A stretch of 46,870 bases of DNA from an uncultured Gammaproteobacteria bacterium (GTDB lineage: Bacteria > Pseudomonadota > Gammaproteobacteria > Cardiobacteriales > CAKMZF01): contig CAKMZF010000001.1 of the NCBI GenBank assembly GCA_929200405.1, positions 1-46,870 of the forward strand, written 5' to 3'. Below, one piece after another: positions 12,952 to 41,474 of this stretch. Every line of letters begins with the position of its first letter. The stretch's first letter is position 1. The notes under the pieces were generated by a model. It did no database searches and had not been told where the DNA came from. It was given only the letters and a program-made list of their open reading frames with translations. The translations under genes were made by a program, and so were the position numbers.

Positions 12952-13962
12952 ATGGAAAAAAAGAAAAAAAATCCAGTAACCTCTATACAAGTGGCGAAAT
13001 TGGCAAATGTTTCCCAATCTGCGGTTAGTCGAACTTTTACAGCAGGGGCAAGCGTTGCTCCTGCGACAAAAGCACGAGTATTGGCAGCTGCCAAGGCGTT
13101 GGGTTATCGACCAAATGTGATCGCAAGGTCATTAATTAGTGGTCAATCGAAAACCGTGGGGTTGGTCGTGGCATATCTTGAGAATCATTTTTATCCCCTG
13201 ATGATTCAGCAGCTATCTCATGCCTTGCAGGCGGATGGCTATCATGTGCTGTTGTTTATGGCAGAGTCTGGTCAACAAGATGCTGTTATTGAACAAATAC
13301 TGCAATATCAGATAGATGGTGTGGTATTGGCTTCGGTTACACTGTCTTCGCACATCGCTGAGGAGTGTGCCAACATCGGGGTGCCGGTAGTGCTATTTAA
13401 TCGATATGTCCCTGATGAGGTACAAGCCAGCACAGTAACTTCGAATAACGAAGCTGGCGGCAGGTTAGTGGCACAAAGGTTAGTTCAAGCAGGGCATAAG
13501 CGCATCAGCTTTGTGGCGGGCAATGTGAACTCGTCGACCAATCAGGATAGAGAGCGGGGGTTTATCGCCAGTTTGAATGCAGAAGGTATCGAGCTTTGGT
13601 CTACAGCCATTGGTAAATATCGTTTCTTGGCTGCTGCCGAAGCTACTCGCGAGATTTTGGCTAAAAAACCGTACCCCGATGCAATCTTTGTAGCCAATGA
13701 TCACATGGCATTTGCGGTGATGGATGTTATTCGCGATGAGTATAAGCTGCGCATCCCCGAGGATATTGCAGTAGTTGGCTTTGACAATGTGCCGGAGTCT
13801 AATTGGGGAGCTTATAGTTTGACAACGGTTGAGCAGCCACTAACGGAAATGGTTGCAGCAACTGCCGAGATATTACTACAACAAATGAAAGATAAAAAAG
13901 TTACGCCGACCCATAAAGTATTCGATACTCAGCTGATTGTGCGTAAATCCGCAGAAATTTAG
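12952..13962 (+). CDS. LacI-family transcriptional regulator (start taken as ATG 12952)
   Basis: HTH VTSIQVAKLANVSQSAVSRTF, hinge LGYRPNVIARSL, PDAIFVANDHMA, IPEDIAVVGFDN, LTTVEQP. Confidence 0.93.
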   Translation: MEKKKKNPVTSIQVAKLANVSQSAVSRTFTAGASVAPATKARVLAAAKALGYRPNVIARSLISGQSKTVGLVVAYLENHFYPLMIQQLSHALQADGYHVLLFMAESGQQDAVIEQILQYQIDGVVLASVTLSSHIAEECANIGVPVVLFNRYVPDEVQASTVTSNNEAGGRLVAQRLVQAGHKRISFVAGNVNSSTNQDRERGFIASLNAEGIELWSTAIGKYRFLAAAEATREILAKKPYPDAIFVANDHMAFAVMDVIRDEYKLRIPEDIAVVGFDNVPESNWGAYSLTTVEQPLTEMVAATAEILLQQMKDKKVTPTHKVFDTQLIVRKSAEI

Positions 13963-13981
13963 AGACAGTAATTTATGTGGT

Positions 13982-14902
13982 TTAATGCCGATCTAAGTGA
14001 TAAAAACGTTTGGCATTTTCTGCGAACAGCAAGGTAATTTGATCGTCATTCAGACCGCTTGTTTTGGCACATTGCAATAGTTCGTCGACGACCTCATCAT
14101 AGCTTTTCATTAGCTTATCAACTGGATAATTACTGCCAAACATCATTCTCTCTACGCCAAATTGTGCTAATAAAGTATCAAATAGCGTTTGAATGCTATT
14201 GGCTGACCAGTTCGTATCAAACATGCCAAATCCTGAGAGTTTGACGTGGCAGTTTGGTAAAGCAGCGAGGTGTTGCATAGCTGTTGTCCAGCCTTGTAAT
14301 CCCTGCTCAGTTTGGTCATAAGGGCTGCCAGCATGGTCTATAGCGATTGGCACGGTGGGATACTGTGCCAGAAAGTTAGCAGCTGACTGCATTTGCTCAG
14401 GGTATAGCTGTAAATCAAAACTCAGTCGATGTTTGGCTAATAAAGTAAAGTTCTCGCGCCATTGCGGATTTTCTAGGTATTTTTCTTTGGTAAAACTGAT
14501 GCTAGGGTTATCGCTGAGTTTGCTGAGGATTTGACGGACACCTCTGAAGTTTGGCAATGCAAGGTAGCGATGTAGCGTTTTCTCAACTATGGTAGTGTTG
14601 GCACTAAGGTCTAAAAAACCGATATGTACTAGTGGCAATTGATTAGCTAGGGAGTGTTCCTCAAGCCAGAGAGATTCGATGACAGGGTCTGCAATAGCGC
14701 CGTCAGCTTGCACATGAATAGAGCCAATGATCTGATGGTGCTGAGACTCGTCCTGAAACTCAGGCGCCAAATAATCTCGTTGTATTGCAGTGGGGTCTCC
14801 AAATGGTTTGATCGCACCAATATTTTTTAACCAGACATATTCTATGCCAAGAGAATCAGAATCAGGACACCAGAGATGGTGATGAGCATCAATAATTTCC
14901 AT
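13982..14902 (-). CDS. Amidohydrolase_2 / COG3618-type lactonase-like hydrolase (start taken as ATG 14902)
   Basis: IIDAHHHLW, FRGVRQ, LSFDLQ, DHAG, VKLSGF, FGSNYPVD. Confidence 0.85.
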   Translation of the reverse strand: MEIIDAHHHLWCPDSDSLGIEYVWLKNIGAIKPFGDPTAIQRDYLAPEFQDESQHHQIIGSIHVQADGAIADPVIESLWLEEHSLANQLPLVHIGFLDLSANTTIVEKTLHRYLALPNFRGVRQILSKLSDNPSISFTKEKYLENPQWRENFTLLAKHRLSFDLQLYPEQMQSAANFLAQYPTVPIAIDHAGSPYDQTEQGLQGWTTAMQHLAALPNCHVKLSGFGMFDTNWSANSIQTLFDTLLAQFGVERMMFGSNYPVDKLMKSYDEVVDELLQCAKTSGLNDDQITLLFAENAKRFYHLDRH

Positions 14903-14909
14903 AATATTT

Positions 14910-15944
14910 TTACTCTCCATATCCCTCTGGTAAGTTCAGCGCAGGCTGACCACGCAGATGTTTGAGTCTGGCAAATACATCAAAACCCATTTGTTTTAAC
15001 ATGTGAATAATATCAATTGGCACCCAGTTTTCGGCGATTCTTCCATCTACGAGATGGTAAAAGTCCATTACGCGCATTTGTATAACTTTGCCAGTCGCTG
15101 GCATGCCAAGCCATTCGCCTAGATGTGTGCCTGTCACAGAGGGCCAGCCCCCTGTGACAACGTAATCACCGTCACCAATTCTGACATAGTGGCCGCTGCC
15201 TTGACGATCAGGAAAGCCTACTAAGAAGGGGATTTGATGGTGGGCACGAAATCCGGACATGCTGCGTGTGGTACCAATTCCTGCCGGACCATACCAAAGG
15301 AAATTGTCTGTCCAATATTGTTGGTGTTGCATGCTATTTAAATCTTTGCCATCGAAGCTGAGAAGGGCATTGTGCATGGCAATCACGGTATTAAATGCGC
15401 TATCGCCTTGTGCTGGTTCACTGCTGTTGAGTCTAACGCCATCATGAGTAGCAGGGTGCTGCCACATGCCTTCGGCACCTAGAGAGGGCATTAATGGCCA
15501 GACGTTGGCTTGTCGCATTAAATCTAGTAGATCAAAAAGCACATATGAGTGTGCGATTTTGCCATCCACTATTGAATGTACTTCACAACTACGCAAGGTG
15601 ACTACGCCTTTTGTTGCTGGAATGCCACAGAGATCTTGCTGAAAAGTGCCTTGGTAACAGCCCATACTGGCAACTAAGATTCTACCAGTTAATGCTTCTG
15701 ATACGCGGTTATCGGCTTTGCTTTCGCCTACGACAAATATGCTATCTCGGCGCTCCATATCGGGTAGGGCTGTTCTGAGTTGCTGCCAGATTGCAGAAAT
15801 GTCAGTATGGCCTTGCACTTCATTAAAAGGGTGGCAGCCCCACCATTGAGCATCGCTATGGTAGCAGTTACTGACGTCGCCATCTTTGCTAAGCTGGTGT
15901 AGTTGTTGGTAAGTTTGTTGCTTTATTTGAGTGAAATCAGTCAC
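14910..15944 (-). CDS. Two-domain SnoaL-like (ester cyclase/NTF2 fold) protein
   Basis: LPDMERRD, GIPATKG, WYGPAGIGT, HQIPFL..FPDR, GTHLGEWLGMPATGK, MDFY..DGRIAENW. Confidence 0.85.
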   Translation of the reverse strand: MTDFTQIKQQTYQQLHQLSKDGDVSNCYHSDAQWWGCHPFNEVQGHTDISAIWQQLRTALPDMERRDSIFVVGESKADNRVSEALTGRILVASMGCYQGTFQQDLCGIPATKGVVTLRSCEVHSIVDGKIAHSYVLFDLLDLMRQANVWPLMPSLGAEGMWQHPATHDGVRLNSSEPAQGDSAFNTVIAMHNALLSFDGKDLNSMQHQQYWTDNFLWYGPAGIGTTRSMSGFRAHHQIPFLVGFPDRQGSGHYVRIGDGDYVVTGGWPSVTGTHLGEWLGMPATGKVIQMRVMDFYHLVDGRIAENWVPIDIIHMLKQMGFDVFARLKHLRGQPALNLPEGYGE

Positions 15945-16031
15945 GATATTGAGTGCTCCATAGCTCTGGGGTTACTAAAAATCCCGCTTTTTTGATGCGC
16001 GGCATTCTATCTCAAAAAATTTTGAGAAACA

Positions 16032-16051
16032 GTTTGCATTCGTATGCAAAC
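16032..16051. promoter_or_regulatory. Putative LacI-family operator in the divergent promoter region
   Basis: GTTTGCATTCGTATGCAAAC: 20-bp palindrome with one mismatched pair and a central CG, typical of LacI/GalR operators. Confidence 0.7.
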
Positions 16052-16261
16052 GATGGCAAGATATTTCTACTCGTTTTTTAATTGCAATATTATAAAGATT
16101 GATTTACGAAAGATATCTTTTATAAATATTCATAAACACTAAAAATAAGCGTGGACTTTTTATAAGGTAGATTTTAGAGGCTATTTGGCGCTAATCATCT
16201 GAATAGCCTTATCATTGAATTGCAAAGAGTTACGTAATGAAAAGCAGGAATTGGGAGTAGT

Positions 16262-17317
16262 ATGGCTGAGATCAATCTAAAAGGTATCTGTAAACGCTGG
16301 GGAAGTTTTGTCGGCGTACATGACTTTAATCTCAAGATTGCTGATCGAGAATTTTTGGTATTGCTTGGACCGTCTGGCTGTGGCAAAACCACCACAATGC
16401 GCATGATTGCTGGCCTTGAAGATATAACCGAGGGTGAGATAACGATTGACGGTAAAGTTGTGAATAACTTAGAGCCTAAAGATCGCGATATAGCTATGGT
16501 GTTTCAGTCCTATGGTTTATATCCGAATATGAATGTTTATGAAAATATTCGGTTTCCGCTCAAAGTTCGCAAAATAGACCCTGCTACCCATGATGAGAAA
16601 GTAATGAAAGCTGCGGAGCGCTCTGAGCTTGTTGACTTCTTACACCGCAAACCAGCTGAGTTATCCGGTGGACAGCGCCAAAGAGTGGCACTTGCCAGAG
16701 CGATTGTTCGCGAGCCGAGTGTGTTTTTGATGGATGAGCCGCTATCTAACCTGGATGCTAAGTTAAGGGTCTCCACTCGTGCACAGATTAAGAATCTTCA
16801 GCATGAGCTAAAAGTAACCACTATTTACGTCACCCATGATCAAATTGAGGCCATGACTTTGGCAGATCGTGTTGTGGTGATGAAAAAAGGTTTAATACAA
16901 CAGGTTGGTGTGCCAACAGAAATATATGACAAACCTGCCAATGCGTTTGTGGCAAGTTTTATCGGTTCTCCGGCTATGAATTTGTTGGAGGGGGAAATAT
17001 CTGATGGCACTTTTACTGGCAAGAATGTATCGGTGTCGGGTTTCCCCAAAACGCTTAGCGGCAAAATTACTTTAGGTTTCCGTGCTGAGGATGCCACAAT
17101 TAATGCAACGGAGTCTGCGGAAGTGAATTCAGCTGTGTATAGTTTTGAGCTACTGGGGGATGCTACCATGGTAAATGTAAAAGCAGGTGGCGCGTTAATT
17201 TCAGTAAAAGCGGAAAAAACCTTTAGGGCGGGGATTGGAGAGAATGTTTCTATTTCAGTTCCTGTAGATATCTGCCATTTATTCTCAGCGGAGGATGGCA
17301 TGAGAGTTGAGTTCTAA
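16262..17317 (+). CDS. CUT1 carbohydrate ABC transporter ATP-binding protein (MalK/UgpC-like)
   Basis: GPSGCGKTT, LSGGQRQRVALARA, MDEPLSNLDAKLR, YVTHDQIEAMT, FIGSPAMN. Confidence 0.95.
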   Translation: MAEINLKGICKRWGSFVGVHDFNLKIADREFLVLLGPSGCGKTTTMRMIAGLEDITEGEITIDGKVVNNLEPKDRDIAMVFQSYGLYPNMNVYENIRFPLKVRKIDPATHDEKVMKAAERSELVDFLHRKPAELSGGQRQRVALARAIVREPSVFLMDEPLSNLDAKLRVSTRAQIKNLQHELKVTTIYVTHDQIEAMTLADRVVVMKKGLIQQVGVPTEIYDKPANAFVASFIGSPAMNLLEGEISDGTFTGKNVSVSGFPKTLSGKITLGFRAEDATINATESAEVNSAVYSFELLGDATMVNVKAGGALISVKAEKTFRAGIGENVSISVPVDICHLFSAEDGMRVEF

Positions 17318-17401
17318 GACTCAATTTCCACTCGGCTTTAGCCGATAATAATAGAGTGTCGTAAGGCAATTGTAATACTAGCAAAAACTAGGGAGAGAAT
17401 A

Positions 17402-18631
17402 ATGATTTTTAAAAAAGCGCTATTGGCTGGTGCCGTAATGATGGCTTCCACGCTTACTTATGCAGAATGTAAGGTTGATGGTGGTAGAGTGAGCATTGTC
17501 GGCAATGAATTTCCAGCCATTCATACAGTAGCGAATGTAGCAGTAGCTTGTGAAGGTATTGATGGAAAATCTAACCTAACAGCAGACCATCAGAAAATAA
17601 ATGTTGCGGGTATGCAAGGCAATCCTGCGGAATATACATCGGCAATTATCGCTAACTCATCTATCGTTGCTTTGATGAACGAAGATGTGATTCGTCCACT
17701 AAACGATTTGGTGGAAAAATATGGGCAGGATATTCCTAAGAAACAGTTGATTACTATCGATGGCGATGTCATGGCAGTTGCCTTTATGGCGAATGCACAG
17801 CACCTAGTATACCGAGCTGATGTACTAGAGCAGATTGGCGTTGAAGTGCCAAAAACTTATGAAGACTTATTGGCTGCCGCAAAGCTTATTCGTGAGAAAG
17901 GCATTATGGACAACCCCGTAGGCGGCGCTTACAAAGCAGGTTGGAATCTAGGTGAAGAGTTTGTCAATATGTATTTAGGATTTGGCGGACAGTTCTATAA
18001 AGCAGGCAGTGCAGAAGTCTCTGTGAATAATGAGCAGGGTGTTGCGACACTGGAAATGTTGAAGTCATTAACCGAGTACATGAATCCAGATTATTTAACC
18101 CATGACTCAAATGCGACCAATGCTGAGTGGGAAGCAGGTAATGTTGCGCTAATGAATATGTGGGGTTCACGTGTAGGCTCAATATTGGATGATGAAGGTT
18201 CTACACCAGAGATTGTTGCTGCTACTAAAGTAGCTGGGCCTATGGCAGTAGGTGGCGGAAGCCAGCCAGCCTCTACACTATGGTGGGATGGATGGACTGT
18301 TGCGAAAAATATCTCTGATGAAGATGCCGCAGCAACATTCCAAGCTCTGGCACATGCAACTAGTGCTGCTATCTTAAATGATGAAACCATGGGGCAAGCT
18401 GTTTGGATGATAGATGGTTATAAGCCAGCAGCTGTCAACGAAGGGGTGTTTGCTGCTATTGATGCGAAAACCACGCCTTATCCAATGCTGCCTTATCAAG
18501 GCTTATTGCACACAGTTTTGGGTGACAATGTTGCAGACTTCCTACAGGGGAAAGAGAGTGCTGAGCAAACCCTCAAAGATATTGAGGCAGCTTACACAGC
18601 AGCAGCTAAAGAAAAAGGCTTCTTAAAGTAA
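17402..18631 (+). CDS. CUT1 ABC transporter periplasmic solute-binding protein
   Basis: Signal peptide, LVYRADVLEQ.G.EVPKTYEDL..AA, G.VALM.MW; position within the ABC operon. Confidence 0.9.
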   Translation: MIFKKALLAGAVMMASTLTYAECKVDGGRVSIVGNEFPAIHTVANVAVACEGIDGKSNLTADHQKINVAGMQGNPAEYTSAIIANSSIVALMNEDVIRPLNDLVEKYGQDIPKKQLITIDGDVMAVAFMANAQHLVYRADVLEQIGVEVPKTYEDLLAAAKLIREKGIMDNPVGGAYKAGWNLGEEFVNMYLGFGGQFYKAGSAEVSVNNEQGVATLEMLKSLTEYMNPDYLTHDSNATNAEWEAGNVALMNMWGSRVGSILDDEGSTPEIVAATKVAGPMAVGGGSQPASTLWWDGWTVAKNISDEDAAATFQALAHATSAAILNDETMGQAVWMIDGYKPAAVNEGVFAAIDAKTTPYPMLPYQGLLHTVLGDNVADFLQGKESAEQTLKDIEAAYTAAAKEKGFLK

Positions 18632-18748: not shown

Positions 18749-19771
18749 ATGACTCATAAATCTTTTTTCTGGTTTGTTCTACCATCCAGCTTAGCCATGC
18801 TATTGTTTATTTTCTTTCCGATTGTATCCGTCATTGTACAATCGCTGCATGTTGACCATGAGCAGGTGATTGTTAGTGTTGAAAACTGCGACTTATTTGG
18901 TTGCACTGAGTCGACTAAAATAGATCAAGAAGCAACAGAAGCGCTAAGAGCAGAGCAACCACTGGGGAGATTTGCAGGATTAACGACCTATTTTGACCGT
19001 AATCATTTAGCCACAGCAGAACTGAAAGAGAGTTGGGAAACCGCAGATAATTGGCGAGATTTCGGTAGCCAATTATTAAATCTTCCGTTTTATAAAGCGA
19101 TTGGCTTTACCTTAGCCTTTACTTTTGTCGTCACCCCACTGGTAATTATGTTGGGCTTTGCGATAGCGGTAGCAGTCAACAGTGCAGCCAAGGTGTTGCG
19201 TGGACCACTGATATTTTTCTCATTATTGCCAATGATGGTAACTCCTTTAATTGGTTCACTGATTTTATTTTGGATGATTGATGCTCGAGGGGTGATTGGC
19301 ACCCTGCTGCAATACCTAGCAGGGGACCCTGAGTTATCGATAAAAGCCTCAACTCCATTGATGTGGATTATGTTGATGGTTTATGGGGTTTGGCATGCAG
19401 CACCTTTTGCGTTCATTGTTTATTACGCAGGTCTTCAAACAGTGAATAGTGAAACACTAGAGGCCGCACAGATTGATGGTGCGAGCCGTTGGGAGCAGAT
19501 TCGTTATGTTGTGATTCCACATTTACTGCCATTGACAACTTTTATTGCATTGATGCAACTAATGGATAACTTCCGAGTGTTTGAACCCATTGTCAGTTTT
19601 GCGGCGAGTGCACACGCCACCTCTTTGTCATGGGCTATATATAACGATCTAGGCGGAGAGACCCGACAATTATCCTCAGCGGCAGCGACCTCAGTGCTAA
19701 CAATCCTAGGGGTGGCAATATTACTATTCCCAGTGCTGGTTCGGACTTGGCGTGACTTCAATAAAAAGTAA
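18749..19771 (+). CDS. CUT1 ABC permease (MalF/UgpA-like)
   Basis: Multiple TMs; EAA loop YAGLQTV...LEAAQIDGASRWEQIRYV. Confidence 0.92.
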   Translation: MTHKSFFWFVLPSSLAMLLFIFFPIVSVIVQSLHVDHEQVIVSVENCDLFGCTESTKIDQEATEALRAEQPLGRFAGLTTYFDRNHLATAELKESWETADNWRDFGSQLLNLPFYKAIGFTLAFTFVVTPLVIMLGFAIAVAVNSAAKVLRGPLIFFSLLPMMVTPLIGSLILFWMIDARGVIGTLLQYLAGDPELSIKASTPLMWIMLMVYGVWHAAPFAFIVYYAGLQTVNSETLEAAQIDGASRWEQIRYVVIPHLLPLTTFIALMQLMDNFRVFEPIVSFAASAHATSLSWAIYNDLGGETRQLSSAAATSVLTILGVAILLFPVLVRTWRDFNKK

Positions 19772-20671: not shown

Positions 20672-20851
20672 TCAATAGAGCTATAGAACAGCCGCAAGAT
20701 TTTCAAGCGATGCAGTTTGGTCTAAATGGTTCAACTGTATAACAACAGACAACTAGAAAACGCACCGATTTAAGCTCTGCTAATTGGTGGGATATCTACT
20801 GCCTAGAACGGCTATTTATTAGCGTAGTATTGTAAACATTGGAGTCTATTT

Positions 20852-21394: not shown

Positions 21395-21444
21395 GACGAT
21401 ACAAAACAGATGTAATAGAATTTCAGGTTTTTCAGGAGTTTCCT

Positions 21445-22782
21445 ATGATTAGATATTTAAAGACCGCAAAGAGTGCGGCCGAAAGAAATGAAGATGATGC
21501 CAAAGTACGGGCAATCGTTGAGAGCACGTTGGCTGAGATTGAGCAGCAGGGCGATCAAAAAGTAAGAGCACTTTCTGAGCAGTTTGATGGCTTGAGCAGA
21601 GAGTCTTACCGACTGAGTGAAGAGGAGATAGCACAGGCTATGTCTGAGGTATCTGAGCAGGAACTGGCTGATATCAAATTTGCTCAGGATCAAATTCGTA
21701 ACTTCGCAGAGCATCAAAAAGCGTCGATGTTAGATGTAGAGGTCGAGACTTTGCCTGGAGTGATTTTAGGCCACAAAAATATTCCTGTGAACTCGGTGGG
21801 CTGCTATGTTCCTGGAGGAAAATTCCCGATGGTTGCCTCTGCGCATATGAGCGTCTTAACAGCAAAGGTGGCAGGAGTGAAACGAATTATTGCTGCGGCA
21901 CCACCGTATAAAGGCAAGCCCCATCCGGCCATTGTCACTGCCATGCATTTGGCTGGAGCAGATGAGATTTATGTACTGGGTGGAATGCAGGCAGTAGGCG
22001 CTATGGCGCTTGGAACCGAAACTATAGAGTCTGTGGACATGTTGGTCGGACCGGGAAATGCTTTTGTAGCTGAGGCAAAACGTCAACTCTATGGCCGTGT
22101 GGGCATTGATCTTTTCGCTGGACCAACTGAAACTATGGTGATCGCAGATCCCGAAGCAGAGGGTGTTGATGGTGAACTCTGTGCCACCGATTTGTTGGGG
22201 CAGGCTGAGCATGGTTATAACTCTCCAGCAGTTTTACTGACTAATTCTGAGCAGCTAGCGCAGGATACGATGGCTGAGATTGAGCGACTATTGCAGATAT
22301 TGCCAACCGCAGAAACCGCAGCTAAGTCTTGGCAGGAATATGGCGAGGTGATTGTTTGTGATACTTATGAGGAGATGCTAGAGCAGGCAGATTTTTATGC
22401 TTCTGAGCATGTTCAGGTAATGACGACGAGAGATGACTGGTTTCTTGAGAATATGACCAGTTACGGAGCGTTGTTTTTAGGCGCTCGCACCAATGTTTCC
22501 TATGGCGATAAAGTGATTGGTACAAATCACACTTTGCCGACCAAAAAAGCAGGGCGTTATACTGGCGGACTGTGGGTGGGCAAATTTATTAAAACCCATT
22601 CATATCAAAAAATAATGACCGATGAGGCGTCTGCTTTGGTGGGGGAATATTGTTCTAGGCTTTGTGCCTTAGAGCACTTTGCAGGGCATGGTGAACAGGC
22701 CAATATAAGAGTTCGTCGCTATGGTGGGGTAGATGTGCCTTATGCAGGTGCTGCGGCAGTTTCTGATGCTTCGAAGCGATAG
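21445..22782 (+). CDS. Histidinol dehydrogenase-family paralogue (HpsN-like Zn/NAD dehydrogenase), probably catabolic
   Basis: [46 protein letters not shown]; no his operon context. Confidence 0.88.
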
Positions 22783-22802
22783 CTTTGCTTTAGGAATATG
22801 CC

Positions 22803-23879
22803 ATGGATGCTAGCACTACCGAAGCCAATGATATACATAGTCATCATAAAAGACTGCTGCAACCGCTGCGTGAAGCGCTGTATAACTTTACCCCAGAGAC
22901 AGTGCAACAACAGTTAACAGAGATATTTTCAGAAAATGCCGTAGTGCATTTGTGCTATCCCTTTGAAGACTTAACTGGAGCCACAGACTTATATGAGCAG
23001 GCGTTACAGCCTTTACATGCGGCATGGCCAGATCTGGAGCGGCGAGATACCATAGTCATTGCAGGCACAACAGAGCACGGTGGTCATTGGGTTGGCTGCT
23101 GTGGTTTTTATAGCGGTACTTTTTTGAATCCGTGGCTGGATATTCCGCCCACGGGACACGTTGTTAGTATGCGTTTTCATGAATTTTATCAATTTGAAAA
23201 TGATAGAGTTGTGCAAATGCAGGCACTCTGGGATATTCCCGAAGTAATGATGCAGGCAAAGGCTTGGCCATTAGCACCTAGTCTAGGTAGAGAGTGGCAA
23301 GTTCCGGGGCCAGCGACACAAGATGGTTTGCAGATAAATAGCCATGATAAAGCGCAAAGTCAGGCGAGCTATCAACATGTTATCGCTATGTTGGATGCAC
23401 TAAAGAAGCACCCCTCGCAAGGGGGGCCTGAGGTGATGGAGCCAAAAAAATATTGGCACCCCAAGATGAACTGGTATGGCCCCGCTGGTATTGGTACAGG
23501 ACGAGGTGTCGCTGGGTTTCGTCACTGGCATCAAATCCCCTTTCTAAATGCCATGCCAGACCGAGGTCAATACCCCGAAGAAGTGAGTTATCATTTTTTT
23601 GGTGATGGACAATATGTTGGAGTAACGGGTTGGCCAAATATGGCGCAGACCTTAACCGATGATGGCTGGCTAGGTATAGCGGCATCGGGTAAAAAAATCA
23701 CTCTTCGAAGTTTAGATTTCTGGCGACTAGAATCAGGGCTTATTCGTGAAAATTGGGTTTTGGTTGATTTGCTATCTGTCTATAAGCAGTTGGGTATTGA
23801 TGTCTTTGCCAGACTTCGTGAGTTTAATAAAGCCAGAAATATGGGGCCGATTGTTTTGCCACCAGAGAACTATGGTTAA
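22803..23879 (+). CDS. Two-domain SnoaL-like protein, paralogue of 14910-15944
   Basis: WPDLERRD, WYGPAGIGTGRG..GFR..HQIPFL..MPDR, GWP, DFW..E.GLIRENW. Confidence 0.85.
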   Translation: MDASTTEANDIHSHHKRLLQPLREALYNFTPETVQQQLTEIFSENAVVHLCYPFEDLTGATDLYEQALQPLHAAWPDLERRDTIVIAGTTEHGGHWVGCCGFYSGTFLNPWLDIPPTGHVVSMRFHEFYQFENDRVVQMQALWDIPEVMMQAKAWPLAPSLGREWQVPGPATQDGLQINSHDKAQSQASYQHVIAMLDALKKHPSQGGPEVMEPKKYWHPKMNWYGPAGIGTGRGVAGFRHWHQIPFLNAMPDRGQYPEEVSYHFFGDGQYVGVTGWPNMAQTLTDDGWLGIAASGKKITLRSLDFWRLESGLIRENWVLVDLLSVYKQLGIDVFARLREFNKARNMGPIVLPPENYG

Positions 23880-23917
23880 ATATCTACATTATTGATTAAT
23901 GAGGCGATGGTACAGAC

Positions 23918-24712
23918 ATGATGGATATGACAGATGCTACAGAGATGGTGGGTTTACCTAAGACACCTTCTTTTCGCTTAGATGGTCGTAGAGCTATAGT
24001 CGCTGGTGCAACCAGTGGGATAGGACTGGGGTGTGCGGTCGCATTAGCCGAGGCAGGTGCCGCGACGACGTTGGTGGCTAGGTCTGAGGATAAACTGTTG
24101 GATATTGTTGAGCAATTAACAGTTGCAGGTTATCAGGCTGATCATTTGGCGTTAGATATTAGCGACGTTGAGTCAGTGCAGACGGCATTGGCTCAGTTGC
24201 CTGCATTTCATGTCTTGGTAAACAGTGCAGGCTTGGCAAGACACAGTCCAGCACTGGACACAGTGGCAGATGATTTTGATGCGGTGATGAACCTAAATGT
24301 TCGTGGCGCTTATTTCCTAACCACCGCGGTGGCAAAAGGCATGAAAGCACAAAATATTGCTGGAAGTATTGTTAATATCTCTAGCCAAATGGCGCATGTC
24401 GGGGGTATTGATAGGGCGGTTTATGCGGCGAGTAAACATGCGGTAGAAGGCATGACTAAATCCATGGCGATTGAGTGGGGGCAGGATAATATTCGGGTAA
24501 ACACCATCTGCCCTACATTTGTACGCACGCCTTTGACGGCAGCAACATTCGAAAATCCCGAGAGATTGGCGTGGATAGAATCCAAAATTAAATTGCCGAG
24601 AGTCGCAGAAGTAGAGGATTTAATGGGGGCGGTGACTTTTATGGCATCTGATGCAGCAGCTATGATTACGGGCACTTCATTATTGGTAGATGGTGGTTGG
24701 ACGGCCGATTGA
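23918..24712 (+). CDS. Short-chain dehydrogenase/reductase
   Basis: GATSGIG, LVNSAG, NISS, YAASK, VDGGW. Confidence 0.93.
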   Translation: MMDMTDATEMVGLPKTPSFRLDGRRAIVAGATSGIGLGCAVALAEAGAATTLVARSEDKLLDIVEQLTVAGYQADHLALDISDVESVQTALAQLPAFHVLVNSAGLARHSPALDTVADDFDAVMNLNVRGAYFLTTAVAKGMKAQNIAGSIVNISSQMAHVGGIDRAVYAASKHAVEGMTKSMAIEWGQDNIRVNTICPTFVRTPLTAATFENPERLAWIESKIKLPRVAEVEDLMGAVTFMASDAAAMITGTSLLVDGGWTAD

Positions 24713-24822
24713 TATCTACCGAGATTTTACGAACGAGCGAATCAACGAATAAACCACTACACAAGCAAAGAGAGCCAATCTCTATTGGTTGGTATAGCGG
24801 AAGAATATTAAGGAAACTTGAG

Positions 24823-25797
24823 ATGACAATGAAAGGCTTTGATCCGAAATGGAAAGATTTTCCAGACTATATCTTGGGAATAACTAAAGAGATTTGGGAA
24901 GATCGCGGGATTGCGACATTAGATCATTATTATTCAGAAGATATTGTTGTTCGCTCACCTAGCTCGGTTGTTATTGGAAACAAAGGAGTTATCGCAGCCA
25001 CTATGGCAACTTTAGCGGAGTTTCCAGATCGAACTTTGCTTGGTGAAGATGTAATTTGGTGCGGCACACCAGAAGATGGCATGCTGTCTTCGCATCGTCT
25101 GCTTTCAACGGCAACACACTTGGGTGATGGTGCCTACGGCGCAGCTACCGGTAAAAATCTAACTTATAGAATTATTGCAGATTGTCATGCGATTAATAAT
25201 CAAATTAATGATGAATGGCTAATCCGAGATCAAGGCGCTATTGTTAAGCAAATGGGTTGGGATTCAAAAGGATTTGCTGTTGATCAGATTGCCAGAGAAG
25301 GTGGGACAGAACACTGTTCAAGACCATTTCATTCGTCTATAGACAGGGTAGGTCCTTATCAGAGCAAGGGCAATGACAACCAATGGGGTCAGCAATATGC
25401 GGATATTCTTAATCGCATTATGAATGCTGATATGGCGGTGATACCTGAGGTCTATGATCGAGCTTGTCAATTGGAATATCCCGGTGGTATAACGGGGCAC
25501 TCTTATGATGCGGCAGACCGGATGTGGATGGGACTGCGATCGGCATTTCCCAGCGCTAAGTTTACTATTCACCACCAGATGGGCAATGAAGATCCAATGA
25601 TGTCACCTAGAGCATCAGTGCGATGGTCTTTGGAAGGCAATCATGATGGATGGGGGGCTTTTGGAGAGCCAACCGGTGCTGAGGTGCATGTTATGGGTAT
25701 ATCCCATGCAGAGTTTGGGCCATGGGGGCTTCGCAAAGAATATGTGTTGTTTGATGAGGTAGCTATTTGGAAGCAAATTGCGCTAAAAACAGGTTAG
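24823..25797 (+). CDS. Two-domain SnoaL/NTF2-like protein (start corrected to ATG 24823)
   Basis: EIWEDRG, EFPDR...GEDVIW, ATHLGDG.YGAATGK, EWLIRD; second repeat AFPSA.F, GNHDGWG.FGEPTG; AAGGA RBS. Confidence 0.8.
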   Translation: MTMKGFDPKWKDFPDYILGITKEIWEDRGIATLDHYYSEDIVVRSPSSVVIGNKGVIAATMATLAEFPDRTLLGEDVIWCGTPEDGMLSSHRLLSTATHLGDGAYGAATGKNLTYRIIADCHAINNQINDEWLIRDQGAIVKQMGWDSKGFAVDQIAREGGTEHCSRPFHSSIDRVGPYQSKGNDNQWGQQYADILNRIMNADMAVIPEVYDRACQLEYPGGITGHSYDAADRMWMGLRSAFPSAKFTIHHQMGNEDPMMSPRASVRWSLEGNHDGWGAFGEPTGAEVHVMGISHAEFGPWGLRKEYVLFDEVAIWKQIALKTG

Positions 25798-25842
25798 TTT
25801 ACCGACCTTCACTGACTCAATATATTCTATGGAAAATCAAAG

Positions 25843-26832
25843 ATGACTTTATCAATACAAGAAATGGAAAAGCGAATCGTTCGCTATGGTGATTTACAGC
25901 CTTGTAAAACAGCGTTTATAGATGCGCATACACCGGGCAGTGATCAGAAAGAGAACTTCACTATTATCGGTTGTGGAGTGTCAGAAAGCCCAGATCAACA
26001 TGTTCACATTTCTGAAACACCGGGTTTTAATATCGGTGCCGCAGGTCAACCACCTAAGTGCTGTAATAGCCTGCATACTCATCGAACGGCGGAGGTGTTT
26101 TTTGTATTATCAGGGCGTTGGCGATTCTTTTGGGGTCAGCACGGTGACGCAGGTGAGGTTGTATTAGAGCCGGGAGATTTAATAGATATTCCGACTCAGG
26201 TGTTCCGTGGTTTCGAGAATATTGGTACAGATTATGGCATGATAATGGCAGTACTGGGCGGAGATGATGCTGGCGGTGGCGTGTTGTGGGCGCCTCATGT
26301 GATTGAAGCAGCTAAAGCGCATGGCCTAATTTTGGCGGAAAATGGGCAGCTATATGACACCAAGAAAGGTCAAGTATTGCCGGACGGTTTACAGTCGATG
26401 CCGTTACTAACTGATGAGCAGTTGCTTGAATTACCGGAGTTGCCTGCATCGGCGGTGGTACCAAGATTTATCGCCAGAAATTTGGATATGCGCGCTAGAG
26501 CGGATGCAAAACCTACTAAAGTGCTTTCTGGGGATCCTGAGGCTCTGATTATTGATAAGCCGGGTTTTACTATTGATTTTGTGACAGAAAAAACAATATC
26601 GACTGTAGACGCTCAGTTGCAAGGGCGGCACCAGATTTTGATGATCAGTCAAGGTCACTGGAAGGTAACGTGGCAGCACGATGGTGAGACCGTGCAAGTG
26701 GTATTAGCAGTAGGGGATACTTGTGCGATACCTCCTGAGTTGGTCTATCAGATCAAGCCTGCTATGACAGGAGAGGCTGGTTTATTTCGTGTCTGCAATA
26801 CAGATGATCCAGCAGGGCCAACCTTACTTTAA
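25843..26832 (+). CDS. Cupin-domain (bicupin-like) protein
   Basis: LHTHRTAEVFFVLSGRW...LEPGDLIDIP; degenerate second barrel ISQGHW...LAVGDTCAIPP. Confidence 0.82.
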   Translation: MTLSIQEMEKRIVRYGDLQPCKTAFIDAHTPGSDQKENFTIIGCGVSESPDQHVHISETPGFNIGAAGQPPKCCNSLHTHRTAEVFFVLSGRWRFFWGQHGDAGEVVLEPGDLIDIPTQVFRGFENIGTDYGMIMAVLGGDDAGGGVLWAPHVIEAAKAHGLILAENGQLYDTKKGQVLPDGLQSMPLLTDEQLLELPELPASAVVPRFIARNLDMRARADAKPTKVLSGDPEALIIDKPGFTIDFVTEKTISTVDAQLQGRHQILMISQGHWKVTWQHDGETVQVVLAVGDTCAIPPELVYQIKPAMTGEAGLFRVCNTDDPAGPTLL

Positions 26833-26861
26833 TTAATGACATTATCACGAGCTAAATGTAA

Positions 26862-28013
26862 ATGGAGACAGCAATGAGCAGCGCGACCACCAAACACCCT
26901 ATTCTAACAACGCATGTCGGCTCATTGCCTAGAACACAACAGGTGGTAGATTTCATTTTTGCCAGAGAGCATAACCAGCCCTATGACGAAGCTGGGTTTA
27001 GAGAGTGCATGAAGCAGGCTTGTGTAGAGACTGTGAGACAGCAAGTTGAGGCTGGGGTAGACATCGTTTCTGATGGCGAGACTTCGAAAATTTCCTATGC
27101 GACCTATGTCAAAGATCGATATACCGGTTTTAGTGGAGATAGCCCAAGAAATGCGCCTGCAGACTTAAAGCAGTTTCCGAGTTTTTTACAGCGTTTGGCA
27201 GATGATGGTGGCACACCACAATATGCTCGGCCGATGTGCACAGGAGAAATTCAAGCAAAAGATGATATGGATTTACTGGCAGATATCGATAATCTGAAAT
27301 TTGCGATGGGCGCCAATGGTGCAAAAAGAGGGTTTATGAATGCGGCATCACCGGGGGTAATCTCGTTATTTCTGCAAAACCAGCATTATCCTACTAGAGA
27401 GGCCTATTTGGCAGCACTGGCAGAGGTGATGAAGCATGAATACGAAACCATCGTTGCTGCAGGGCTTGATTTACAGTTGGATTGCCCGGACTTGGCATTA
27501 TCACGACATATGCTATTTAGTGATTTGACTGACGCTGAGTTTGTGAAAATAGCGGAGATGCATGTTGAGGCGTTAAATCACGCCTTAGCTAATATCCCCG
27601 CAGAGAAGGTTCGCATACATATTTGTTGGGGGAACTATGAAGGCCCTCATGTCTGCGATATCGGTATGGATAAAGTGTTTACGACTTTGATGAAAGCCAA
27701 AGCCGATTATGTGTTATTTGAAACTTCTAACCCTAGACATGCCCATGAATGGACGGTTTTTTCAGAAAGACGTGCAGAGATACCGGAGCACAAAATATTA
27801 GTCCCCGGTGTGCTTGATACCACAACAAATTTTGTTGAGCATCCACAGTTAATTACACAGCGAATACAGCGGTTTGTTGATATCGTTGGTGCAGAGCGTG
27901 TGATTGCAGGGACTGATTGTGGCTTTGGCACGTTTGCAGGCTTCGGTGCAGTAGACCCTGAGATTGCTTATGCCAAGTTAGCTGCATTATCTGAAGGTGC
28001 TAAGGCCGTATAG
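26862..28013 (+). CDS. Cobalamin-independent methionine synthase C-domain-like (Meth_synt_2; epoxyalkane:CoM transferase-related) Zn enzyme
   Basis: TTHVGSLPR, DIVSDGE, LQLDCPDL, HICWGN, GTDCGFG; only 383 aa (no MetE N-terminal half). Confidence 0.85.
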   Translation: METAMSSATTKHPILTTHVGSLPRTQQVVDFIFAREHNQPYDEAGFRECMKQACVETVRQQVEAGVDIVSDGETSKISYATYVKDRYTGFSGDSPRNAPADLKQFPSFLQRLADDGGTPQYARPMCTGEIQAKDDMDLLADIDNLKFAMGANGAKRGFMNAASPGVISLFLQNQHYPTREAYLAALAEVMKHEYETIVAAGLDLQLDCPDLALSRHMLFSDLTDAEFVKIAEMHVEALNHALANIPAEKVRIHICWGNYEGPHVCDIGMDKVFTTLMKAKADYVLFETSNPRHAHEWTVFSERRAEIPEHKILVPGVLDTTTNFVEHPQLITQRIQRFVDIVGAERVIAGTDCGFGTFAGFGAVDPEIAYAKLAALSEGAKAV

Positions 28014-28054
28014 CTCGCCTAAGACAACTAATAGGTAGCTGAAATGGAAAGTAA

Positions 28055-28756
28055 ATGGAACTAATATTGCTGCCAGGGATGATGTGCGATGATCGCTTAT
28101 TTACCGCACAGTTATCGGCGCTGAGAGATCGTGCTTCGGTAAAAGTCGCCTCGATTAGTGGTTATAACCAAATCGAGCGGATTGCTGAAGATGTGCTCTC
28201 TCAAGTGAGAGATGAACAATTTGCATTGGCTGGTTTATCTATGGGGGGAATTGTAGCCATGGAAGTTGTTCGACAAGCACCAGAGAGAGTTTTGCAGCTT
28301 GCCTTGTTGAACACCAATCATTTATCTGACACTACCGAAAAGCGGGAGATTCGCAGCAAGCAAATAGCTCGCGTACTCTCAGGCGGCCTTGCAAAAGTCT
28401 TGATTGAGGAGATGAAACCTCTGTACTTAGCTCCGCAAAATAGTAGCAGAGATGATATATTGCAAACGGTCGTGAATATGGCATTAGATCTAGGAGAAAG
28501 TGTTTTTATTCGACAATCTGAGGCATTGGCGAACCGTCGAGACTACTCTGAAACCTTGCAGAATTATTTTGGTAAAACGTTGGTGTTAGCAGGTGAGCAT
28601 GATGCGCTCTGTCCACCTGAACGTCATCAAGCCATTGCTGATTTATTGCCAAATGCCACTTTAAAGATAGTGCCTAAGTGTGGTCATCTCAGCACGATGG
28701 AAAGCCCCGATAGTGTAAATACATCACTATTTAATTGGCTGAATAAGAGTGTTTGA
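28055..28756 (+). CDS. Alpha/beta-fold hydrolase
   Basis: GLSMGG nucleophile elbow, GEHD, CGHLSTME. Confidence 0.9.
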   Translation: MELILLPGMMCDDRLFTAQLSALRDRASVKVASISGYNQIERIAEDVLSQVRDEQFALAGLSMGGIVAMEVVRQAPERVLQLALLNTNHLSDTTEKREIRSKQIARVLSGGLAKVLIEEMKPLYLAPQNSSRDDILQTVVNMALDLGESVFIRQSEALANRRDYSETLQNYFGKTLVLAGEHDALCPPERHQAIADLLPNATLKIVPKCGHLSTMESPDSVNTSLFNWLNKSV

Positions 28757-28823
28757 GACAGTCTCATTTATCTAATTCCCGTGTGTTTTACATAACTTTA
28801 TAACCTGTTTAAAAGGAAGCTTT

Positions 28824-29555
28824 ATGTCCTCTATATCTGACAATAAACCGCAATTTCTACCGGATGATCATTTTTGGGAAAAGCTAAAAAGTGTCGATAC
28901 GCCAACAATCTGCAACGCCATTGAAGTGGCTGAGGGCCAACGCGGATTTAATAATTTCACGCATCAAACAATGCTCTGTGCTGATGTGAAATTGCCAGCT
29001 ATATGTGGCTATGCGCGCACAGCACGCATAAAAGCAGTAACACCTCCAGAGGAGTCAAAAGAAGTGATTCAGGCTAGGCGTATGGACTATTATAAATATA
29101 TGGCCGATGCAGCAGAGCATTCTGTGGTGGTGATAGAAGATGTTGATTATCCTCATGCAATAGGCGCATTCTGGGGAGAGATTAATACAGCCGTACATTC
29201 TGGCTTTGGTTTAGATGGAGTGCTTACGAATGGGGTAATGCGTGATCTCGGTGACATGCAACCGGGCTTTCAAGTGATCGCGGGTTCGGTAGGCCCCTCG
29301 CATGGGTTTGTGCATGTCTTAGATTTTGGCCAGCCTGTATCGTTCTTTGGTTTGAAAGTACAGCCTAATGATATTGTACATGCTGATCGTCATGGTGCAG
29401 TGGTTATACCAGAAGCAGTGTTACCTAAATTAGTACAAGCTATTGATACTCTGTTGGAGAGTGAACATTTGGTATTAGGACCAGCCAGAGAGCCAGGTTT
29501 TAATTTTGAAAAGTTCCAAGCCGCTTGGTCGGCATTTGAAAAGGCGAGAACCTGA
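28824..29555 (+). CDS. RraA/HMG-aldolase family protein
   Basis: DTPTICNAIE, GYARTA, FWGE, NGVMRDL, DIVHADRHGAVVIP. Confidence 0.87.
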   Translation: MSSISDNKPQFLPDDHFWEKLKSVDTPTICNAIEVAEGQRGFNNFTHQTMLCADVKLPAICGYARTARIKAVTPPEESKEVIQARRMDYYKYMADAAEHSVVVIEDVDYPHAIGAFWGEINTAVHSGFGLDGVLTNGVMRDLGDMQPGFQVIAGSVGPSHGFVHVLDFGQPVSFFGLKVQPNDIVHADRHGAVVIPEAVLPKLVQAIDTLLESEHLVLGPAREPGFNFEKFQAAWSAFEKART

Positions 29556-41471: not shown

Positions 41472-41474
41472 TTT

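Follow-up and report, generated by a model that had tools for sequence, protein, structure and literature searches.

A horizontally mobile, LacI-repressed catabolic island rich in NTF2-fold proteins from an uncultured gammaproteobacterium, and a tentative account of its substrate

The window analysed here is a 46,870 nt stretch of DNA (positions 1 to 46,870 of contig CAKMZF010000001.1, assembly GCA_929200405.1) from an uncultured member of the Gammaproteobacteria. Sixteen genes between positions 12,889 and 29,555, identified from the list of open reading frames (ORFs) and assigned to domains by a Pfam scan, form a horizontally mobile, LacI-repressed catabolic island. Comparison with related loci confirms a repressor-controlled locus for import and catabolism that is sharply bounded and has spread horizontally. 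Which dissolved metabolites marine bacteria consume, and by which genes, is a central question of ocean carbon cycling, and solved pathways such as those for 2,3-dihydroxypropane-1-sulfonate (DHPS) and homarine have turned anonymous gene sets into metatranscriptome markers. The island is a good target for substrate discovery: it is sharply bounded, its operator is conserved and it encodes a binding protein of its own. Culturable carriers exist (Ruegeria, Leisingera, Marinovum, Halomonas and Ensifer), and plasmids have spread the genes across phyla and into a haloarchaeon. The initial annotation had read the region as a complete-looking LacI-regulated pathway with a cyclic or sulfur-containing, plausibly algal substrate; that overall interpretation is partly supported.

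Related loci were collected by scanning one genome per species with one of the tandem NTF2/SnoaL proteins of the island (NTF2-B, 22803-23879, plus strand, assigned by Pfam) as the query. This gave 599 candidate stretches, 585 of which were confirmed as relatives. The best 80 of the 585 were kept with up to 10 kb of flank, a set dominated by Ruegeria and containing many close kin, and genes were counted over the 60 of these 80 loci that are at least 20 kb long and therefore have full flanks. NTF2-B is present in 60/60 by construction. The LacI gene, the solute-binding protein gene and each of the two permease genes were found in 58 of the 60 loci and the ATPase gene in 56. The enzyme genes were similarly frequent: NTF2-C was found in 59, NTF2-A and the HisD-like dehydrogenase in 58 each, the cupin in 56, the single-domain SnoaL protein and the short-chain dehydrogenase/reductase (SDR) in 55 each, and the MetE-like, alpha/beta hydrolase and RraA-like genes in 49 each. 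The Amidohydro_2 gene, found in 35, appears to be an accessory part. All 14 core genes occur in 41/60 loci, while genes flanking the island in the window (GDSL lipase, DUF1499, SBP_bac_5) occur in 0/60. Rhodobacterales, Hoeflea and Roseibium keep an almost constant gene order; in SAR324, Halomonas and one marine metagenome-assembled genome the same genes stand in a different order. This is not a chance neighbourhood, because gene content, gene order and operator recur in many unrelated genomes. It had been suggested beforehand that the pathway reading would fall if the genes were not conserved together; the 41 complete loci and the conserved operator speak clearly for joint conservation.

Carriers are mostly Ruegeria and other Rhodobacterales, with further examples in Leucothrix, Hoeflea, Roseibium, Halomonas, Granulosicoccaceae and SAR324. 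The closest is Leucothrix, whose HisD-like protein is 89% identical to that of the window. Record titles give algal, invertebrate, sea-ice and saltern sources. The Halomonas versions have an added HpcH/HpaI aldolase, zinc-dependent alcohol dehydrogenase and aminotransferase and no MetE-like gene. One SAR324 locus (L078) holds a frameshifted gene for a pyridoxal phosphate (PLP) enzyme of Cys/Met metabolism (12195-13370) inside the cluster.

Horizontal spread is indicated by plasmid carriage and by the absence of the tandem NTF2-B protein from genomes of the same order: none of the 40 searched (completeness 78-100%) encodes it. No second cluster was found in the window's own genome (2.64 Mb, 226 contigs). 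A tblastn search against plasmids matched 24 records. Ruegeria spp., Tritonibacter, Paracoccus alcaliphilus and Marinovum algicola carry the cluster in full on plasmids or chromids, and IS5 and IS6 transposase genes border the cluster on a plasmid of Octadecabacter arcticus. A plasmid of the soil bacterium Ensifer adhaerens carries a cluster with neither the MetE-like gene nor an NTF2-B orthologue. Smaller versions also exist. Plasmids of Phaeobacter piscinae carry a minimal module of LacI, NTF2 genes and a CUT1 importer, and a plasmid of Vibrio pelagius has four tandem NTF2 genes around a CUT1 importer; besides a regulator (LacI or a different one), these minimal modules contain just the importer and NTF2 proteins.

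The most divergent version is on a plasmid of the haloarchaeon Halobellus limi, where four tandem NTF2 genes and one single NTF2 gene are followed by a MetE-like gene. They adjoin another ATP-binding cassette (ABC) importer, an aldehyde dehydrogenase, an NAD(P) oxidoreductase and a metallo-beta-lactamase (MBL) hydrolase. Vicinal oxygen chelate (VOC) proteins, an HpcH/HpaI aldolase and a GcvT-like protein are encoded at most ~12 kb upstream, beyond an IclR regulator gene. Non-orthologous replacement, with the aldehyde dehydrogenase and oxidoreductase standing in for the HisD-like enzyme and the MBL hydrolase for the lactonase or esterase, supports the step logic proposed below. The nearby VOC proteins could likewise replace the cupin, and the nearby HpcH/HpaI aldolase the RraA-like protein.

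Some neighbours of the minimal modules were also inspected. Sarcosine oxidase and PurU genes beside the Vibrio pelagius module were considered as a clue to N-methyl chemistry and given little weight; they lie ~0.8 kb past the last NTF2 gene, have their own helix-turn-helix (HTH) regulator gene nearby and are absent from other versions. On the same plasmid (L082, 25536-26990) a short 'methionine synthase' gene adjoins a DUF1852 gene, ~11 kb from the NTF2/CUT1 module and beyond a transposase gene. This pair resembles the oxygen-dependent, folate-independent MesD/MesX methionine synthase. A gene related to the selenium-binding protein SBP56 (13702-15099) adjoins the minimal module on a Phaeobacter piscinae plasmid (L087). 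SBP56 belongs to the family of methanethiol oxidase, and possible links to methyl-sulfur metabolism are offered by this gene and by the PLP enzyme gene of the SAR324 locus.

Within the window, the island is arranged as three transcription units. A 317 bp divergent intergenic region separates a minus-strand pair, made of the Amidohydro_2 and NTF2-A genes, from a plus-strand run of thirteen genes comprising the CUT1 importer and then nine enzyme genes. The LacI gene is the third unit and is convergent with the minus-strand pair. Eleven enzyme genes are present in total, and seven NTF2 domains are encoded, three of the four SnoaL proteins being tandem. The regulator, operator, CUT1 importer and eleven enzyme-like genes described by the initial annotation were all recovered in place from the ORF list and Pfam. 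Its four SnoaL genes, two divergent units and cupin also stand, with the refinements that three of the SnoaL proteins are tandem, that LacI forms a unit of its own and that the cupin is a bicupin.

The LacI-family repressor gene (12889-13962, plus strand) encodes an N-terminal HTH and a periplasmic-binding-protein-like effector domain (Pfam LacI HTH and Peripla_BP_1/3/4), and every LacI-type NCBIfam model scores under its cut-off for this protein. Its true start is probably near 12952, an in-frame internal start, because family matches begin at residue ~25-35. A LacI-type operator palindrome, GTTTGCATTCGTATGCAAAC, lies in the divergent promoter region (16032-16051); it is 20 bp long with a central CG and one mismatch adjoining the centre. 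The conserved form of the palindrome between the two divergent operons is TTTGCATNCGNATGCAAA, and the operator as a duplex is TTTGCATTCGTATGCAAA. Searching the 80 related loci (1.50 Mb) with TTGCA-N2-[CG][CG]-N2-TGCAA gave 104 sites in 63 of them. The large majority (93/104) lie between a minus-strand tandem NTF2 gene and a plus-strand ATPase gene, in the counterpart of the window's own divergent promoter, often two per region. In 20 mononucleotide shuffles the mean was 0.15 sites and no shuffle held more than 1. The significance of the operator rests on this cross-genome count and not on the window, where the pattern is not significant (1 site; at least one in 44/100 shuffles, with up to 3 mismatches). 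A looser motif has a second match in the window at 35604, inside an unrelated gene, which was taken as chance. The LacI-family protein probably binds the palindrome between the divergent operons. As a regulatory model with predicted binding, the LacI-operator pair is well supported because the cross-genome footprint of the operator is joined by the HTH and effector domains of the protein.

The plus-strand run ends at a terminator-like hairpin between convergent genes (29583-29615), followed by UUUU. The surrounding RNA (29556-29625) folds at -25.6 kcal/mol (z -4.04), with 0/200 shuffles equally stable. A consensus terminator scan found nothing after 29555, the terminal hairpin having only four U, so that the closing terminator of the initial annotation was recovered by folding and missed by the scan. 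Among public sequencing runs, a look-up for 19800-29600 listed three DNA runs of a single study, one of which may be the source, and no RNA run.

All components of a CUT1 importer are encoded at the start of the run: a MalK/UgpC-type ATPase (16262-17317; ABC_tran and OB_MalK, the C-terminal regulatory OB/TOBE domain), a periplasmic SBP_bac_1 solute-binding protein with an N-terminal signal-like segment (17402-18631; Pfam), and two BPD_transp_1 permeases (18749-19771 and 19790-20671). The ATPase passes the NCBIfam UgpC subfamily model (447 bits against a cut-off of 432). No NCBIfam model matched the binding protein, and its best relatives in the PDB are distant binders of sugars or sulfoquinovosyl-glycerol, at E 3e-9 or weaker. 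Only two NCBIfam models were exceeded in the island, the other being domain-level hisD. The initial annotation had remarked on the lack of a kinase, glycosidase, CoA ligase, polyketide synthase (PKS) or exporter; Pfam and NCBIfam searches of the 16 island proteins likewise found no such domain.

The regulator family, the central-CG palindrome, the SBP_bac_1 protein, the two permeases and the MalK/UgpC-type ATPase are shared with LacI-regulated CUT1 loci such as mal, ugp and smo. In contrast to these, the island has no glycosidase, kinase or isomerase. Its enzyme set (seven NTF2 domains with HisD-type, MetE-type, bicupin and RraA-type proteins) was not found in any known LacI/CUT1 locus and is in this sense unprecedented. 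The literature was equally silent: full-text searches, whose scope did not extend to subscription-only papers and bioRxiv supplements, turned up neither a description of this combination of genes nor any gene for breaking down mycosporines or gadusol. With no enzyme-specific NCBIfam model above its cut-off either, the earlier failure to match the genes to a characterised pathway holds.

The NTF2-fold proteins are the most distinctive part of the island. NTF2-A (14910-15944, minus strand; two SnoaL stretches by Pfam) is 41% identical to NTF2-B, and the two are paralogues. NTF2-C (24697-25797, plus strand; Pfam SnoaL) was called from a TTG that overlaps the SDR gene (24697-24829). Its residues 1-44 are unconserved over 66 sequences, the conserved part beginning at ~45, and for this reason the true start is probably a Met near 24823-24829. 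The AlphaFold2 (AF2) model of NTF2-B shows two NTF2 domains; the N-domain has a predicted local distance difference test (pLDDT) score of ~90, and the C-domain is poor, with its conserved loops below 50. Foldseek placed the model near SnoaL-like cyclases, PhzA/B and Lsd19/MonB, which are two-domain epoxide hydrolases; these neighbours are all generic, at 10-20% identity, and no close characterised NTF2 enzyme was among them. Among 1.84 billion cluster representatives, the NTF2-B family has 175 at E <1e-30 and 601 at <1e-10. A Rosetta-stone search of longer NTF2-B relatives found no other enzyme domain fused to them. It is hinted that the separate NTF2 proteins work together as one assembly, because related single polypeptides hold three or four SnoaL domains (P0016, 538 aa; P0021, 692 aa; P0022, 711 aa).

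The single-domain SnoaL-fold protein (20852-21394, plus strand; Pfam SnoaL) is ~80% identical across phyla. In SnoaL itself the catalytic residue is reportedly Asp121, acting with Gln105, His107 and His119. The island protein aligns end to end with the SnoaL chain 1sjw, and Q105/H107/H119/D121 are replaced by Y124/D126/N138/V140. The public label 'ester cyclase' is unsupported at residue level because of these replacements; the NCBIfam model SnoaL_meth_ester reaches 39.7 bits against a cut-off of 200. The island proteins share the Pfam SnoaL/SnoaL_2 fold with the SnoaL/AknH methyl ester cyclases and the tandem two-domain architecture with Lsd19/MonB. They differ from these SnoaL/NTF2 enzymes in their catabolic context with an importer and in their own invariant motifs, WYGP-GIGT-RG and WHQIPF. 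A precedent for C-N hydrolysis by an NTF2 fold is AtzH, as described in the accessible text of PMC6219798.

The second distinctive protein is a HisD-family dehydrogenase (Histidinol_dh; 21445-22782, plus strand), identified by Pfam and by comparison with the PDB. It aligns over its full length with HpsN (8v35, 8wwe; 386 bits), while HisD chains reach at most 246 bits. It passes the domain-level model TIGR00069 and falls short of the equivalog PRK13770 (234 against a cut-off of 647). According to the accessible text of PMC11382572, HpsN is defined by a G-R-Y-A/S-H loop whose His (His126 in CpHpsN) binds the sulfonate, and HisD carries G-S-A-P-L at this position. The aligned loop of the island protein, G-G-K-F-P-M, contains the motif G-K-F-P-M and fits neither. 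Among the window protein and 70 orthologues, the loop reads GGKFPM in 65, GGGYPM in 3, AGKFPM in 2 and AGKYPM in 1, with Met as the last residue in 71/71. The catalytic E-H (ASEH) and G-D-K (YGDK) motifs are kept, aligned to Glu318, His319, Asp352 and Lys353 of HpsN, and the 71-sequence profile shows both as conserved. The retained residues include the counterpart of Lys353, the lysine that contacts the sulfonate in HpsN. The window's own genome has two more HisD-family genes with G-R-Y-S-H and G-D-K, 46-47% identical to the island copy.

Judged on its sequence, the island paralogue is a member of a third HisD-family subgroup, because of the G-K-F-P-M loop, the Met in 71/71, the retained catalytic motifs and the separate HpsN-type copies in the same genome. 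As in HpsN, the E-H pair and the G-D-K Zn-loop motif are present and a four-electron oxidation of -CH(X)-CH2OH to an acid is expected; in contrast to HpsN, the loop is G-K-F-P-M and there are no sulfolactate-processing genes in the island context. The enzyme very probably oxidises -C(OH or NH)-CH2OH to the acid. Its substrate would not be recognised as a sulfonate, and an anion may still face the conserved Lys. The accessible text of the D-cysteinolate pathway paper describes a true HpsN 'sharing identical substrate-binding residues', and for this reason that paper does not describe the G-K-F-P-M subgroup. The two HpsN-type copies lie at C21:1532-2749 and C106:251-1471, both on the minus strand (loci L091 and L093), and a fourth, partial PF00815 match lies on C211. 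With two such copies, the organism probably also oxidises DHPS or cysteinolate-type sulfonates.

The remaining enzymes appear to be active, judging from their retained catalytic motifs. The 'core' MetE-like Zn alkyltransferase (26862-28013, plus strand; Meth_synt_2, PF01717) has 383 aa and matches the catalytic domain only, with no folate-binding N-terminal domain. Across 61 sequences, its motifs HiCWGNY, FEtSNPRH and DCGF show at least 95% conservation. By analogy with MetE, the H-x-C, E and C are presumably the Zn ligands, and the G-S-L-P-R, D-G-E and Q-L-D motifs are taken to resemble the homocysteine site. The fold of the catalytic domain and the Zn-ligand motifs are shared with MetE and other 'core' MetE-like enzymes. 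Seven NCBIfam methionine-synthase models all score under their cut-offs, the nearest at 107 bits against 406. The methyl donor is presumably a pathway intermediate, because the gene sits in a catabolic operon, and methyl transfer from such an intermediate to homocysteine would be the simplest reading. This gene is also the sole PF01717 match in the 91.5%-complete genome, and the organism seems to be without a canonical MetE.

The bicupin metalloenzyme (25843-26832, plus strand; Pfam cupin) is presumed to be a dioxygenase. Its AF2 model (pLDDT 85.6) has the bicupin form, and the top Foldseek matches are MncA, oxalate decarboxylase, quercetin dioxygenase and salicylate 1,2-dioxygenase. H78-x-H80-x3-E84 in the N-terminal barrel is invariant. 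The alpha/beta-fold serine hydrolase (28055-28756, plus strand; Pfam), of the PcaD/BioH-like esterase or lactonase type, conserves GLSMGG, Asp and GHL (Ser-Asp-His). It is nearest to 3-oxoadipate enol-lactonase and BioH-type esterases, with the PcaD model at 97 bits against a cut-off of 256. The Amidohydro_2 metal hydrolase (13982-14920, minus strand; PF04909, E 5.9e-31) is of the lactonase type and its gene overlaps that of NTF2-A by 11 nt. Among NCBIfam models, L-fucono-1,5-lactonase comes closest to the protein (103 bits; cut-off 400), the nearest PDB chain is 4dlf, and its HHHLW...HAG...D residues are conserved. The SDR (23918-24712, plus strand; adh_short_C2, E 1.7e-56) is nearest to gluconate-5-dehydrogenase, KduD, glucose-1-dehydrogenase and L-rhamnose-1-dehydrogenase models, all under their cut-offs.

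The last gene encodes an RraA-like protein (28824-29555, plus strand; PF03737, E 4.2e-16), presumed to be a class II pyruvate aldolase or oxaloacetate decarboxylase. Its stretch NGvmRDLgD, which 57 sequences conserve, includes R-D-x2-D; R-D-x2-D/E is the metal and catalytic motif of RraA-like aldolases. The RraA-like fold and this motif are shared with 4-hydroxy-4-methyl-2-oxoglutarate/4-carboxy-4-hydroxy-2-oxoadipate (HMG/CHA) aldolase (LigK/GalC), from which the island protein differs in matching no specific NCBIfam model or solved protein of known function. The best NCBIfam match of the island protein, to a subfamily named 'hypothetical protein', reaches 56 bits (cut-off 208). The position of the gene at the end of the operon fits the expected final C-C cleavage.

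These families suggest a general step logic, a non-phosphorylative, CoA-free breakdown route, which we propose as plausible and still tentative. The oxidation, ring opening, lactone or ester hydrolysis and aldol cleavage foreseen by the initial annotation remain the best fit. We infer that a small, polar organic acid of polyol-like character is imported, bearing a methyl group that can be transferred and, on or beside a ring, -C(OH/NH)-CH2OH; a carboxylate is suggested by a tripartite ATP-independent periplasmic (TRAP) transporter set, DctPQM, inserted in one cluster. The seven NTF2 domains would act first on the imported molecule, removing or rearranging substituents by C-N or C-O hydrolysis or isomerisation, and are placed there because the minimal modules hold only importer and NTF2 proteins. 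The MetE-like Zn enzyme would then shift the methyl group to a thiol, most simply from the intermediate to homocysteine to give methionine. The HisD-like enzyme would oxidise -CH2OH to -COOH with two NAD+ and the SDR a secondary alcohol, after which the bicupin would cleave an enediol or diketone ring with O2. Ester or lactone products would be opened by the alpha/beta hydrolase and the amidohydrolase, and the RraA-like protein would finally cleave a 4-hydroxy-2-oxo acid to pyruvate and a second keto acid.

The most specific candidate substrates, named here with considerable doubt, are the mycosporine-like amino acids together with gadusol and 4-deoxygadusol. Mycosporines are polyol-like cyclohexenones or cyclohexenimines. 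They have a single methoxy group, a tertiary carbinol to which -CH2OH is attached, and one or two carboxylate-bearing amino-acid arms. These compounds match unusually many features of the island and fit most steps. Hydrolytic loss of the amino-acid arms would yield 4-deoxygadusol, and its O-demethylation a cyclic aci-reductone. Oxidation of the C5 hydroxymethyl group and dioxygenolytic cleavage beside the enediol would then lead, on paper, to 4-carboxy-4-hydroxy-2-oxoadipate, which the RraA-like protein would split into pyruvate and oxaloacetate, both of which would enter central metabolism. This last split is known from RraA-like aldolases of aromatic pathways. The presence of quercetinase, which cleaves an enolic hydroxy-ketone, among the structural neighbours of the bicupin may favour the sunscreen candidate, as may the AtzH precedent and the algal, invertebrate, sea-ice and saltern sources of carriers. 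The accessible text of PMC3083659 credits a bacterium, Vibrio harveyi, with turning shinorine and porphyra-334 into mycosporine-glycine and 4-deoxygadusol and names no genes, and the accessible text of a 2026 cyclitol review mentions no catabolic genes for mycosporines or gadusol. That the island is the missing bacterial mineralisation pathway for mycosporine-like amino acids and gadusol is a shade more doubtful again. If it were, the substrates would be the main natural ultraviolet (UV) sunscreens of algae, cyanobacteria, corals and fish eggs, and the island would give a first genetic handle on the turnover of a major marine class of UV-protective compounds. Three new activities would follow: arm-stripping NTF2-fold hydrolases, a MetE-like enzyme passing a methoxy methyl to methionine, and a third HisD branch oxidising a ring hydroxymethyl group. 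Apart from this candidate, the island holds enzymology that no characterised family member covers, namely the third HisD/HpsN subgroup, a catabolic 'core' MetE and tandem NTF2 arrays that current pipelines mislabel as polyketide 'ester cyclases'.

Several points weigh against this account. The locus counts are not independent, being drawn from the best-scoring of the 585 relatives, with Ruegeria dominant and many close kin. All steps are assigned at the level of protein families, and none of the eleven enzymes reaches a function-specific NCBIfam cut-off (June 2026 release). A ~620-nt insert between the cupin and MetE-like genes occurs in 27/54 Rhodobacterales-type loci (L002, L004, L014, L061 and L081 among them) and is absent from the window. 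In the three loci inspected it is a class I S-adenosylmethionine (SAM)-dependent methyltransferase, and such an enzyme beside one that would remove methyl groups has no place in the scheme and is unexplained. The MetE-like gene is absent from the Halomonas and Ensifer versions, although all mycosporines are methoxylated; these versions would need another demethylation route, for example cleavage to a methyl ester and then an esterase. No necessity is assigned in the scheme to the SDR, the amidohydrolase and most NTF2 domains. Motif 2 of the bicupin lacks the His of classical 3-His/1-Glu dioxygenases, and the protein could instead be a decarboxylase or isomerase. The RraA-like protein has no PDB match of known function at E <= 0.01, its sole match being the uncharacterised 3k4i, and orthology to 4-carboxy-4-hydroxy-2-oxoadipate aldolases is accordingly not shown. 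Finally, carriage on a soil Ensifer plasmid weakens a purely marine substrate. The 'plausibly algal' origin suggested at the outset may or may not hold, since versions are carried by this plasmid and by a saltern haloarchaeon.

Other substrates were weighed against the same genes. Breakdown of an unusual sugar without phosphorylation (for example of an aldose that is methylated, deoxy or branched, or of the corresponding acid) is also doubtful, if conceivable. In such a route the SDR would make a C1 lactone for Amidohydro_2 to open, NTF2 proteins and/or the cupin would replace a dehydratase or isomerase, the HisD-like enzyme would make the uronic or aldaric end, and the RraA-like protein would cleave a 2-keto-3-deoxy acid to pyruvate and an aldehyde. 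LacI with CUT1 is the classical sugar signature, and rhamnose/fucose-type routes employ HpcH/HpaI aldolases like those of the Halomonas and Halobellus versions. The nearest models of the SDR (glucose-1-dehydrogenase, gluconate-5-dehydrogenase, KduD and L-rhamnose-1-dehydrogenase) and of the amidohydrolase (the L-fucono-1,5-lactonase family) point the same way; however, their scores are well under the cut-offs and the lactonase is in only 35/60 loci. Nor is there a conserved enolase-superfamily or IlvD-type dehydratase, a single MR_MLE gene lying at the edge of one SAR324 locus, and the Zn-thiol alkyltransferase, the oxygenase-like bicupin and seven NTF2 domains would be left idle. Several parts, namely the bicupin, the RraA-like protein, the esterase and the NTF2 domains, would have no role if the substrate were a glyceryl-linked or quaternary-ammonium/sulfonium osmolyte or lipid head group such as glyceryl-trimethylhomoserine (the head group of a deacylated betaine lipid), which we consider improbable. 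Here the HisD-like enzyme would oxidise the 2,3-dihydroxypropyl end and the MetE-like protein would act like betaine-homocysteine methyltransferase. The nearest characterised relative of the HisD paralogue, HpsN, does act on a 2,3-dihydroxypropyl compound, and MetE-like chemistry would require an activated methyl donor. CUT1 systems do import deacylated head groups, as indicated by the ATPase passing the UgpC cut-off and by SmoF (sulfoquinovosyl-glycerol) among the distant relatives of the binding protein. One-carbon genes also lie nearby in V. pelagius (sarcosine oxidase/PurU), Halobellus (GcvT-like) and SAR324 (the Cys/Met PLP enzyme), but these are not conserved members and are mostly separate units, and the GDSL lipase is in 0/60 loci.

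A lower pathway for a methoxylated aromatic or a lignin- or phlorotannin-type compound would run through demethylation, a ring-cleaving cupin dioxygenase and pyrone or enol-lactone hydrolases to a LigK-type aldolase. The set of Amidohydro_2, PcaD-like, RraA-like, cupin and methyl-removing proteins echoes the logic of protocatechuate/gallate 4,5-cleavage and the beta-ketoadipate pathway, and salicylate 1,2-dioxygenase is among the neighbours of the bicupin. Nevertheless, this is quite improbable: there is no LigI-, LigJ- or LigK-specific NCBIfam match at E <= 1e-5, the transporter and regulator are of sugar type and unlike those usually found with aromatic acids, and a HisD-family enzyme and an NTF2 array are foreign to such pathways. 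A DHPS- or sulfoquinovose-derived sulfonate is very improbable, despite the closeness of the HisD paralogue to HpsN and its Lys353 equivalent. The loop is G-K-F-P-M instead of G-R-Y-A/S-H, two separate G-R-Y-S-H copies exist in the same genome, and no sulfolyase, sulfite exporter or sulfite dehydrogenase was found in any cluster version inspected. The 'sulfur-containing' substrate of the initial annotation is thus not upheld in the sulfonate sense, the sulfonate-binding His being absent as well. Least probable of all is a biosynthetic, polyketide-type cluster, as implied by the public NTF2 annotation 'ester cyclase' and the Gene Ontology term 'polyketide metabolic process'; there is no PKS, nonribosomal peptide synthetase, CoA ligase or exporter, an importer and a LacI repressor are present, and the single-domain SnoaL protein lacks the SnoaL catalytic residues.

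The homarine pathway was considered as a known system and ruled out. The accessible text of the report on the homarine operon homABCDER (Nat Microbiol 2026, PMC13236597) describes a recently discovered pathway for a methylated metabolite abundant in the sea, which is widespread in Rhodobacterales and Halomonadaceae, a distribution that resembles the Rhodobacterales and Halomonas-type carriers of the island. However, the FAD-binding HomA, HomB, the peptidase-like HomC, the aldehyde dehydrogenase HomD, HomR and the betaine-type transporter described there are absent from the island, and 'SnoaL', 'histidinol' and 'cupin' each have 0 occurrences in the accessible text.

The flanks of the island in the window are unrelated to it. 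Upstream are OmpA, DUF4407, rhomboid, LIV-type ABC and GDSL autotransporter genes, and downstream DUF1499, SBP_bac_5, GGDEF, beta-propeller lactonase and cbb3 oxidase genes. The GDSL lipase/esterase, fused to an autotransporter beta-domain (10643-12682, minus strand), lies directly upstream of the LacI gene and divergent from it; it was considered as an island member and ruled out by its occurrence in 0/60 related loci. Further upstream (2494-6632), an OmpA-family gene and a DUF4407 gene (3000-4337) precede one for a 750-aa protein that ends in a rhomboid domain. The cbb3-type cytochrome oxidase region at 35966-45626 is complete; besides COX1/FixO/FixP and FixH it encodes a FixG-like ferredoxin, DsbD_2 and a P-type ATPase with a cation-ATPase metal-binding domain. 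Next come an ArsC/glutaredoxin-like gene and one for an ecotin homologue (46156-46704).

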